Source of the DNA: Chloroflexota bacterium
GTDB lineage: Bacteria > Chloroflexota > Anaerolineae > JAAEKA01
Reading direction: 5' to 3'
Assembly: GCA_029558955.1 (NCBI GenBank)
Contig: JAKQCW010000021.1
Location: 895-64,894 of the forward strand
DNA: 64,000 bases
Shown here: one piece after another, positions 33,069 through 34,349 of the stretch
How positions within the stretch are numbered: the first letter of the stretch is position 1
How the letters are laid out: each line of letters opens with the position of its first letter
Notes under the pieces: model-generated
What the model was told of the DNA's origin: nothing
The model's input: the letters and a program-made list of their open reading frames with translations, nothing else
Databases searched by the model: none
Position numbers and translations under genes: made by a program

Positions 33069-34349
33069 ATGGAAATTGGAGCCGTCCTCAAGATTATCGG
33101 AACTGTGATCTCAATAATATCCGGACTCGTCGAGTTGTATCAGAAAGCCGACGAGTATTTTGACAATCCAGATGACAATAATCGAAGTCAGTATGAATCC
33201 CAATTGATAGAAATCATCCGGAGTCGCCAGGCTATTTTGGACGCGTGTACTTCGATCTATCAAGCAATCACTCAATTGAGCAGCACGATGTTCCGCCAAG
33301 TAATCGCTGACAATCTGGGCGACGCTGATCAAGCGCAACAGGCTCTTGATAATTGGCGCAGACCACCGCAGTCTATTGGACAGCGCGATATCGCGCTAAA
33401 TGAGTCAGCCGGAGCGCTGGCCGATCTCCTTCAGTACTGGCGTAATGGTGTCTACCCCGGTGTCTCTCTTGTGGTGCCACTCATGGAGGTATTGCTGGTC
33501 CGTCTGTGGATATTGAAACAGGCAGACCCTTCATTCATTACTTCTGAAGTCGCCCGACAGCCTATCGAGGAAAGCGTCGTAATGCTCCGCTATACTGCCG
33601 GTGACCTTGAAGCCCGCATTCTGGCAGCTAACCAAGTTGAGAAGACAACCACGCACAGGACATGGGTTCGAATCGATCCAGAGACCGGTGACAAAGAGCG
33701 AGGCGTGACTACGACCGTTACCGTAAGTTATCACAACATCACCGGAACAGCTACCTATCACAGGAGCATCAGCTTCGAGAAAGATGACATTGACACGGAA
33801 ATCTCTGATGCCATTGCGGGGCTGCACGCGGAGGCTTCAGCCGCGCGTTCCGGAGGACTTTCGGAGGACCTCCGTCAAGCCCAGATCGATAACCTCAGAA
33901 GCACTGCGAGCAGGGCTGAAAGGTTGTTGCGCGGTGAAGAGATCCGTGTGGTTGAGAGAATCATCGGACGAAAGCTATCGCTTGTCGAAAACGCTGAATT
34001 CCAGACACTGCGTGAATCAAATGATCTTCGGGGAAGTATCGTGAAACTCGCTGACAAGTATATCCTTGAAGGAGAGCTTCGAGGTACCCTATTTGATGAT
34101 ATGATGACAAATTGTGGCGAACTTCTGTCTCACAGCCTGACAAGCGACGAGACGCAGGCGCTGATCGCACTTGCTCGTACTTTTGGATCAAAGGCTGCTC
34201 TGCGGGTTCTACTCCACCATCGGGACAGCGCAACTGCCAATCGCGTCAAGACCATACTTGACATATCTGCGGCTTCCATGCCGGAAGGACAACCTGGAAT
34301 TGAGGGGGAGATGCCGATGGAACCGACGAGAGAGGTTTCAACACTCTGA
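33069..34349 (+). CDS. Island protein D: hypothetical with an N-terminal hydrophobic/amphipathic helix and the C-terminal motif SMPEGQPGIEGEMPMEP
   Basis: AAAGGAG RBS before ATG 33069. N-terminus MEIGAVLKIIGTVISIISGLVELY. The C-terminal 15-residue motif is shared with the N-terminal extension of the downstream protease. Confidence 0.6.
   Translation: MEIGAVLKIIGTVISIISGLVELYQKADEYFDNPDDNNRSQYESQLIEIIRSRQAILDACTSIYQAITQLSSTMFRQVIADNLGDADQAQQALDNWRRPPQSIGQRDIALNESAGALADLLQYWRNGVYPGVSLVVPLMEVLLVRLWILKQADPSFITSEVARQPIEESVVMLRYTAGDLEARILAANQVEKTTTHRTWVRIDPETGDKERGVTTTVTVSYHNITGTATYHRSISFEKDDIDTEISDAIAGLHAEASAARSGGLSEDLRQAQIDNLRSTASRAERLLRGEEIRVVERIIGRKLSLVENAEFQTLRESNDLRGSIVKLADKYILEGELRGTLFDDMMTNCGELLSHSLTSDETQALIALARTFGSKAALRVLLHHRDSATANRVKTILDISAASMPEGQPGIEGEMPMEPTREVSTL

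Follow-up and report, generated by a model that had tools for sequence, protein, structure and literature searches.

Gene D encodes a 426-residue protein of an unnamed family and lies in a 64,000-nucleotide stretch of DNA from a Chloroflexota bacterium (assembly GCA_029558955.1, contig JAKQCW010000021.1, positions 895 to 64,894 of the forward strand), which is the whole stretch analysed here and is called the window. It belongs to a block of six genes, A to F, in which it is followed by gene E, encoding a matrix metalloproteinase (MMP) zymogen of the pro-matrixin type. The block is flanked by two genes for proteins that resemble NOD-like receptors (NLRs) and belong to the signal transduction ATPases with numerous domains (STAND) (Table 1). 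Comparison of D with its relatives indicates that D is the constant, non-enzymatic neighbour of a changing hydrolase, and that in the lineage of the window a motif under selection ties D to E. The frame upstream of D is open to an ATG at 33027, which would give 440 residues and is used by one Joint Genome Institute (JGI) gene call. We place the start at 33069 because AAAGGAG lies 9 nt before this ATG and all family members align from the corresponding Met. The 426-residue reading frame of the preliminary description is a real gene with a strong ribosome-binding site (RBS); the N-terminus of its product reads MEIGAVLKIIGTVISIISGLVELY, and an exact copy of the protein is present on 11 metagenome contigs. 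The 141-bp gap between D and E, also given there, is exact. A terminator-like site was sought in the gap and none was found, Rfam gave no match, and the RNA fold is unremarkable (z = -0.67). Since the gap contains no terminator, D and E are probably co-transcribed. The GC content of the block around D (30.0 to 37.9 kb) is about 0.47-0.58, versus about 0.65 in the surroundings. The NCBI names of proteins encoded nearby point to an Anaerolineae metagenome-assembled genome (MAG) as host.

Table 1. Features of the D locus, in coordinates of the window (AF2, AlphaFold2; pLDDT, predicted local distance difference test; ORF, open reading frame; aa, residues of the encoded protein).
Feature	Position	Strand	Basis
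Gene D, member of an unnamed family, 426 aa + stop	33069..34349	+	ORF list
Shine-Dalgarno-like AAAGGAG, 9 nt 5' of the D ATG	33053..33059	+	direct sequence reading
N-terminal hydrophobic/amphipathic helix of D, aa 1-24	33069..33140	+	hydropathy, AF2 model, alignment
N-terminal helical domain of D, aa 1-187, ~8 helices	33069..33629	+	AF2 model, alignments, hydropathy
Three long polar beta strands of D, aa 191-237	33639..33779	+	AF2, block pLDDT 92-96
Two long helices and small C-terminal helical domain of D, aa 242-382	33792..34214	+	AF2 model, alignment
Disordered C-terminal tail of D, aa 393-426	34245..34346	+	AF2 pLDDT below 50
Tail motif of D, aa 403-419, three X-Y-Gly triplets plus EMP	34275..34325	+	motif scan, blastp-short
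D-E intergenic gap, 141 bp, RBS GGAG ahead of the E start	34350..34490	+	direct sequence reading
Gene E, pro-matrixin with PLL/PHL-type lectin beta propeller	34491..36359	+	Pfam, PDB matches
Motif copy in the disordered E leader, aa 56-72	34656..34706	+	motif scan, blastp-short
Gene A, DUF2589	30674..31498	+	Pfam (3e-28)
Gene B, weak similarity to A, 225 aa as called elsewhere	31717..32394	+	local comparison
Gene C, 188 aa, unassigned	32412..32978	+	ORF list, no profile similarity to D
Gene F, 151 aa, unassigned, last of the block	36399..36854	+	ORF list, family scans
BTAD/SARP-type regulator upstream of the operon, present in loci L002/L003	28790..29737	+	Pfam (BTAD 7e-23)
HTH(XRE)-NB-ARC/NACHT-TPR (NLR-like) protein, left flank (HTH, helix-turn-helix)	24504..27368	-	Pfam
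Paralogous HTH(XRE)-NB-ARC/NACHT-TPR (STAND) protein, right flank	37889..40561	-	Pfam; NCBI name 'helix-turn-helix domain-containing protein'

The link between D and E is carried by the motif SMPEGQPGIEGEMPMEP, whose 17 residues include four Pro and four Glu and are acidic. The preliminary description had claimed a motif common to the end of D and protease E, and 13 of the 17 positions are indeed identical in the two copies. The pair is the sole significant cross-match among 10 local proteins (blastp-short E = 5e-7), and a six-frame scan of the 64-kb window found only the D and E copies. The motif was also sought in both flanking NB-ARC proteins and is not present in them; its partner is protease E. 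At the DNA level 36 of 57 nucleotides are identical, with matches at 13, 16 and 7 of 19 first, second and third codon positions, respectively. The motif does not represent a recent duplication, because the peptide is conserved while the third codon positions have diverged; it is maintained by selection, at the peptide rather than the DNA level. The near-orthologues P0002-P0004 keep the tail motif of D, with the 20 residues before it varying, and the orthologous E (locus L002) retains IMPEGQPGVEAETP in an otherwise divergent leader. The E leader additionally carries DMPAG and EMPSG, and all six [DEST]MP sites among the 10 local proteins fall in the D tail (two) or the E leader (four). A profile search for more motif carriers, made with a limited tool, covered one candidate and gave no match. 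Six relatives (P0005, P0008, P0028, P0032, P0036 and P0047) end in short acidic tails rich in Pro, Glu, Gly and Ser with a 'PEG'-like core, such as ...SSNDEPEGAAARAES and ...SDSPAEGDSS. Because these relatives stand outside the matrixin lineage, the 'PEG'-type tail may be older than the matrixin link.

D had been described as having no known domain, and nothing significant was found in Pfam, NCBIfam, PADLOC, PHROGs or PDB sequence searches. The best curated-family scores were below thresholds (Pfam E = 0.067, PADLOC E = 0.027), NCBIfam and PHROGs returned nothing, and the check for a housekeeping family yielded no curated-family match. A Pfam scan of 29 family members likewise found no Pfam family common to more than one of them. 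A word-indexed search of 5.8 billion clusters retrieved five D-family clusters, and the same type of search with a 29-sequence profile returned five proteins, with P0053 as the sole addition. Exhaustive profile searching with HMMER across 1.84 billion representative proteins at 50% identity yielded 47 D-family representatives at E ≤ 1e-3, 24 of them at E ≤ 1e-30. A first scan of genome contigs, with an alignment of close relatives, found no copy, and a second found two degraded copies only, in Streptomyces siamensis and Blastococcus deserti. The latter keeps only a fragment. In Streptomyces siamensis JCM 18409 (L009, 10052-11001) the copy is split by a frameshift and is therefore likely a pseudogene; within 3 kb downstream of it lie a GNAT gene and a large NLR-type gene with a P-loop (NB-ARC-like by motif) and WD40 repeats. 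A metagenome scan detected the family on six contigs, mostly short, and no copy was found on viral contigs by scanning or on plasmids by tblastn. Full-length members have about 370-430 residues, and a short form of about 273 residues lacks the C-terminal helical domain. D is thus a member of a small unannotated protein family.

The genomic neighbourhoods of these relatives reveal a recurrent arrangement. In five independent lineages a hydrolase is the immediate co-directional neighbour of the D-family gene, at a spacing of 42-141 bp, and its type is patatin twice, phospholipase D (PLD), subtilase S8 and, in the window, the pro-matrixin/lectin protein E. P0007 and P0008 (~37-38% identical to D) follow, at 91 bp, one protein or a pair of genes with MAP3K_TRAF_bd, TPR-S and patatin domains, an arrangement of which locus L001 is a degraded copy; no paper on TPR-S/MAP3K/patatin conflict systems was present in the library searched. 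P0013 (43%) follows a 431-residue patatin by 107 bp. P0023 (31%) lies 42 bp after the PLD gene, in a run of five tight genes (locus L015) that encode an unknown protein of 583 residues, the PLD, the D relative, a GNAT-containing protein and a leucine-rich repeat (LRR) protein; a divergent STAND ATPase accompanies the run. P0021 from Streptomyces sp. Tue6028 (32%) lies 59 bp before a signal-peptide-bearing Peptidase_S8 gene, in a locus (L029; GCA_965343135.1, 1-21131) where the pair is flanked by NACHT-transmembrane and HTH-P-loop-TPR proteins. This locus resembles a defence island, with pPIWI_RE, Mrr, UvrD plus DUF2290, a DEAD helicase and an SMC-like ATPase. In the window, D precedes the M10 protease gene by 141 bp, between two HTH-NB-ARC-TPR genes, and STAND/NLR-like ATPases are usually close to D-family genes. 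As side observations, the GNAT-containing gene of L015 is directly 3' of the D relative; the patatin partner at L006 (5914-9909) and L007 (419-3082) ends in hydrophobic, transmembrane-like segments; and a trypsin-like protease and an amidase are encoded just upstream of it on the opposite strand.

Conservation next to matrixin genes, which the preliminary description had made a touchstone for D, holds for the near-orthologues (76-79% identity) but not for distant relatives, which adjoin patatin, PLD or subtilase S8 genes. The matrixin-linked lineage comprises the near-orthologues P0001-P0004 only, and its operon was directly checked for P0001 and P0002. Since the distant relatives adjoin these other enzymes, the general rule for the family appears to be adjacency to a hydrolase, not to a matrixin. 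The patatin-linked P0013 is 43% identical to D of the window and 36% to the patatin-linked P0005; partner type therefore does not follow the phylogeny of D. P0010, which is followed by an integrase gene, is a counter-example to hydrolase adjacency. The main new result of the neighbourhood comparison is a putative hydrolase-adjacent family, built on a sequence family that had carried no annotation.

The AlphaFold2 model of D, computed with 29 sequences, has a pLDDT of 87.4 and a predicted template-modelling (TM) score of 0.81; an earlier run with five sequences was poor (pLDDT 57) and was excluded from the fold search. Beyond its N-terminal helix, D had been predicted to be helical as well. The model agrees for residues 2-187 and 242-382, but a beta meander intervenes at 191-237 and the tail at 393-426 is disordered. 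The N-terminal domain includes the most conserved stretch of the family, ADxLGDxDQA...ALNESAGALAD, and a second hydrophobic helix at residues 131-150. The strands of the meander are polar (TTHRTWVRIDPE, ERGVTTTVTVSYHN) and carry a near-invariant Tyr221 and an invariant Asn223. Gly263 and Asp267 are invariant in the following helical region, whose part after about residue 300 is missing from the ~273-residue short forms P0037-P0048. The invariant or near-invariant positions of the family (I63, F75, A89, A109, S113, R145, N188, Y221, N223, G263 and D267) include no typical catalytic residue type, so that D looks non-enzymatic, as had been proposed. A Foldseek search of the model against PDB and BFVD gave no match at E ≤ 1e-3, with TM-scores of long alignments ≤0.31, and D is thus a confidently modelled protein that appears to be without a detectable fold relative in either database. 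Profile-profile comparison revealed no relationship between D and its neighbours B and C or the 583-residue protein of L015.

Protein E is a complete pro-MMP with a PG_binding_1-type prodomain, the cysteine switch PRCGFPD, the HEFGH motif and a Met-turn. Pfam assigns PG_binding_1, Peptidase_M10 (4.5e-51) and DUF346, and the PDB matches include human collagenase 1su3 (2.7e-59, over the prodomain and catalytic domain) and the PHL lectin (6e-99). The protein begins with a disordered leader of 95 residues and lacks a signal peptide; it is a cytoplasmic-looking zymogen that nonetheless bears a propeller of the lectin (PLL/PHL) type. The propeller DNA (35565-36351) is a tandem repeat with a unit of 270 bp, or two blades, in 2.9 copies at 89% identity, and the blades are therefore near-identical, resembling the highly conserved repeats reported for the WD and TPR arrays of NLRs.

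The genes of the island, A to F followed by an MntA/HepT-like pair, are all on the plus strand, and the order A-E is kept in the orthologous operon (loci L002-L005). The similarity between A and B is confined to one segment (VPILTMLPIPFIRVDEVTID versus VPLLEGLSVPRIRVPELTVD), and DUF2589 itself is essentially unstudied, with only two incidental mentions in the literature. The flanking paralogues are 56% identical over ~570 aligned positions (the N-terminal ~535 residues), and a direct repeat of 183 nt (75%) at their 5' ends is attributable to this paralogy. A 20-nt inverted repeat with 90% complementarity (31492-31511 and 36880-36899) has one arm right at the A stop codon and the other just past that of F and thus brackets B-F; with a chance expectation of about 0.2 pairs of this kind per 14 kb, it may be nothing. 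At the right edge of the island (37183-37919), genes for an MntA-like nucleotidyltransferase (89 residues) and a HepT-like protein (156 residues) overlap by 4 nt and form a type VII toxin-antitoxin-like pair. Between the left flanking gene and the regulator (27570-28564), two adjacent paralogous small ORFs, whose longest frames overlap, share a cadherin-like segment, 'VDIPVLxND(I/F)D...LRV', and the second has a signal-peptide-like N-terminus.

Taking these observations together, we tentatively favour a combined reading, which may well prove wrong, in which a swappable hydrolase has D as its constant partner; D may act on membranes and, in this lineage, is docked to E or processed by it through the motif. 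D would be the non-enzymatic half of a cassette of a D-family protein plus an exchangeable hydrolase in NLR-rich filamentous bacteria. The motif would serve as a docking or processing handle by which E engages both D and its own leader. D would then be the membrane-directed or executing partner, whose N-terminal hydrophobic helix, once released or reoriented, acts on the membrane, by analogy with executioners of the HeLo, Bell and gasdermin types, which have proteases, lipases and NLRs as partners. This membrane or executing role is suggested by the N-terminal helix, the lipase partners, the NLR-rich setting, weak echoes of pore-formers, and the analogy with gasdermin-protease and Bell/BASS-NLR systems (BASS, bacterial amyloid signalling sequences). 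The earlier idea of D as a substrate or effector of the protease thus stands in part: functional coupling to E is well supported by the motif and the gap without a terminator, but the transmembrane reading and a matrixin rule beyond the near-orthologues did not hold. A bolder version, in which the D family is an undescribed class of cell-death or membrane-damage executioners with a new fold, working together with or licensed by an exchangeable hydrolase, and in which the pro-MMP of the Anaerolineae lineage recognises or cleaves the collagen-like Gly-X-Y tail motif of D, is doubtful. If it were true, a cytoplasmic pro-MMP would be the metalloprotease analogue of caspase-gasdermin control.

Several observations weigh against the combined reading. 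Cleavage within the motif would trim just ~16 residues from D without touching the prodomain of E, and nothing in the model suggests that the disordered tail packs against the core to inhibit it. Family members of lineages other than that of the window lack the complete tail with the motif, which is a lineage-specific addition, and no motif common to D relatives and their neighbours was found in L015, L029, L006 or L007. The S8 partner has a signal peptide and E a lectin propeller, which point to extracellular targets, and D has no export signal. The informative neighbourhoods represent five lineages only; neither the distant P0053, which is solitary beside a GerE-type regulator, nor the short-form P0037, with a Fic gene nearby, has a hydrolase neighbour. 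Because NLR-like genes are abundant in these phyla, their proximity to the D family could be due to chance. HeLo, HeLo-like and MLKL domains gave no Pfam match at E ≤ 0.1 and are not among the best 50 PDB fold matches. The Foldseek matches of D to pore-formers are non-significant (E 0.08-0.6, TM-score 0.11-0.31): the weak top matches are the alpha-pore-formers MakE (E 0.076, TM-score 0.11-0.13) and ClyA (E 0.19-0.34, TM-score ≤0.24), followed by MakA (E 0.6), Cry4Ba (E 0.5) and IPD113 (probability 0.97 but TM-score 0.30). Furthermore, no segment of any D-family member, N-terminal or internal, is predicted to insert as a transmembrane helix, and the Hessa-scale sums of the N-terminal helix have a median of +5.6 kcal/mol and a range of +1.1 to +12, with none ≤0 among 27 members.

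The N-terminal helix itself begins at residue 2, without a leader, and conforms to the family consensus hhhAhhxAIGxVxxAINxIYxFVKN. A protein anchored in the membrane by this helix, for example to tether E there, would be in keeping with the absence of a cleavable signal-peptide architecture and with the hydropathy of residues 3-21, the most hydrophobic segment of D in the window (Kyte-Doolittle 19-mer mean 2.19, above the usual cut-off of 1.6). However, D itself scores +1.6 kcal/mol as a Hessa-scale sum, the first 25 residues carry 5-7 charges in many members, and in the AlphaFold2 model the helix (pLDDT 81-87) lies with the other helices of the bundle. Such an integral membrane protein is highly improbable. 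Because the Hessa sums are all positive and many charges fall in the first 25 residues, the helix is a conserved hydrophobic or amphipathic helix and not a conserved membrane anchor. The preliminary wording of a transmembrane-like or amphipathic helix accordingly survives in its second half, whereas the anchor fails across the family.

The constancy of D beside variable enzymes would suit a soluble protein that lacks membrane activity of its own and serves the adjacent hydrolase as regulator, adaptor or chaperone, whether by keeping it inactive or by activating it; the tail of D could then compete with or mimic the motif of the E leader, in the manner of a pseudo-substrate or a docking exchange. 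The lack of any transmembrane prediction in the family, the position of the motif in disordered regions of both partners, and the few conserved polar positions (S113, R145, N188, Y221, N223 and D267), which are of no typical catalytic type and fit binding or scaffolding, argue in the same direction. Moreover, the region of the beta meander and the following helix gives many weak matches to the COMM domain, a known oligomerisation module: 13 of the best 50 Foldseek matches are COMMD chains (E 0.08-0.6, probability up to 0.89 on 75 columns), and the topology of residues 191-270 is compatible with the COMM beta1-beta2-beta3-alpha fold. These matches are non-significant (TM-score ≤0.39), however, a single fold is unlikely to regulate patatin, PLD, S8 and M10 enzymes by direct recognition of their active sites, and the non-matrixin loci revealed neither a common motif nor a common docking element. 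We regard this explanation as somewhat unlikely. The motif could instead be an export or packaging signal, with D and E as co-cargo of a non-classical release that act outside the cell, possibly by way of the upstream DUF2589 proteins A and B, protein C, or lysis. An extracellular target would account for the lectin propeller and the collagenase-like domain of E. Encapsulins and extracellular contractile injection systems (eCIS) place their cargo signals in terminal disordered tails or leaders, and the motif occupies just such positions, at the end of the disordered tail of D and in the disordered leader of E. Export would also accommodate a full pro-MMP unit with a PLL/PHL-type propeller and no signal peptide, a co-directional block A-F of which at least A-E is conserved in orthologous loci, and the secretion of the Streptomyces S8 partner by its signal peptide. 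Nevertheless, scans of A-F with Pfam, NCBIfam, PHROGs and PADLOC recognised no component of a shell, an injection apparatus or a secretion system, and specifically no shell-type family among A, B, C and F, despite the terminal or leader peptide common to D and E. There are only two motif carriers in the window, the limited profile search having added none; other family members lack the motif and still keep a hydrolase neighbour; and the patatin partner has C-terminal transmembrane segments, not an export signal. Co-export is hence unlikely. The tiny and patchy distribution of the family, the degradation of two isolate-genome copies, and the members that lack a hydrolase neighbour would be expected if D were an unrelated hypothetical protein in a horizontally acquired island. 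The absence of any functional link is very unlikely, since a hydrolase is the immediate co-directional neighbour in five independent lineages and the motif persists as a peptide despite diverged synonymous sites and is retained by D and E alike in the orthologous operon.

If the cassette reading were true, the D family would represent a new non-enzymatic module among the NLR/STAND-associated conflict systems of multicellular bacteria, systems that correspond in prokaryotes to cell-death machinery of the gasdermin, HeLo and MLKL types. A first functional handle would also be gained on the presence, in a bacterium, of a complete pro-MMP devoid of an export signal. With its small size, its confident model and a 17-residue motif linking two adjacent proteins, the family is a tractable target for structural and toxicity studies. 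If D were only a chaperone or a co-secreted factor, the gain would be a modest one in annotation.

The available tests assign D to none of the gasdermin, HeLo/MLKL, ClyA and COMMD families. Collagenases cut type I collagen between GPQG and IAGQ. The D/E motif is in the same Gly-X-Y register, PEG-QPG-IEG in D and PEG-NPG-VEG in E, with Gly followed by Ile or Val; in contrast to the scissile site, its Pro is at P2, where P3 is preferred, and with three triplets only it would form no triple helix. The resemblance is suggestive only. Bacterial gasdermin systems pair bGSDM with an adjacent protease (10.1101/2021.06.07.447441). The D family similarly places a non-enzymatic protein beside a protease (M10 at 141 bp, and S8 59 bp downstream in L029), with NACHT/TPR/LRR-type sensors in or beside the operon and, in L029, a defence-island-like context. 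The short C-terminal peptide of bacterial gasdermin is the point of protease control, and D has its own C-terminal tail at 393-426. The differences are that D is all-alpha with a three-stranded meander and not a twisted beta-sheet core, lacks an N-terminal Cys for palmitoylation, and has a tail disordered in the model, whereas the gasdermin peptide is packed on the core; lipases are among the partners of the D family, and protease E belongs to the metalloproteases, not to the caspase-like or CHAT enzymes. Gasdermin was rejected as an identity for D, with no Pfam match, none among the best 50 Foldseek PDB matches, and a mainly helical model.

The lipase effector-immunity pairs (Tle-Tli) of type VI secretion systems also have a small-to-medium non-enzymatic gene directly 3' of a patatin or PLD-type lipase gene. 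Immunity proteins, however, are specific to the toxin fold and normally have an export signal, whereas the D family also precedes proteases (S8 and M10) and D lacks such a signal; on both counts a role of D in lipase immunity was rejected. With the ClyA family and domain I of Cry toxins, D has in common an elongated helical bundle, an inserted beta element and an N-terminal amphipathic or hydrophobic helix. There is no sequence similarity to D, and its long, polar strands form no hydrophobic beta tongue of the ClyA type, a further point against a pore-forming role. In the Bell/Bab proteins, four helices cup a hydrophobic helix 1 with a central Gly (10.1101/2020.01.06.895854; 10.1101/2024.11.07.622273), and G11 of Bab helix 1 is essential (10.1101/2024.11.07.622273). 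A mid-helix Gly is present in ~60% of D-family members and is G11 in D itself, which is a resemblance only. An acidic residue at position 2-3 is a signature of Bell, HeLo and MLKL helices (10.1101/2020.01.06.895854); it occurs in 8 of 35 D-family members, about background, and was rejected as family-level evidence. D differs from Bell/BASS systems in that the family has 370-430 residues and a beta meander, whereas Bell is a five-helix bundle of 80-140 residues, and in that its motif partner is a protease and not an NLR. The motif is acidic and proline-rich and hence not amyloid-like; being rich in Pro and Glu, with a partner other than an NLR, it was rejected as an amyloid signalling sequence. 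The likenesses are nevertheless several: a short C-terminal motif of a helical protein is repeated in the N-terminus of the next co-directional product, the helical protein opens directly with a hydrophobic helix ('ME...' in D), and both occur in filamentous Actinobacteria and Chloroflexi, in which NLR-like genes abound. Lipase co-effectors, as found beside the D family, occur in the same clusters in fungal HeLo/HET-S-NWD2 and SesA/SesB-lipase/NLR systems. By analogy with these known systems, D may serve under STAND-type control, coupled as executor or adaptor to a lipase or protease.

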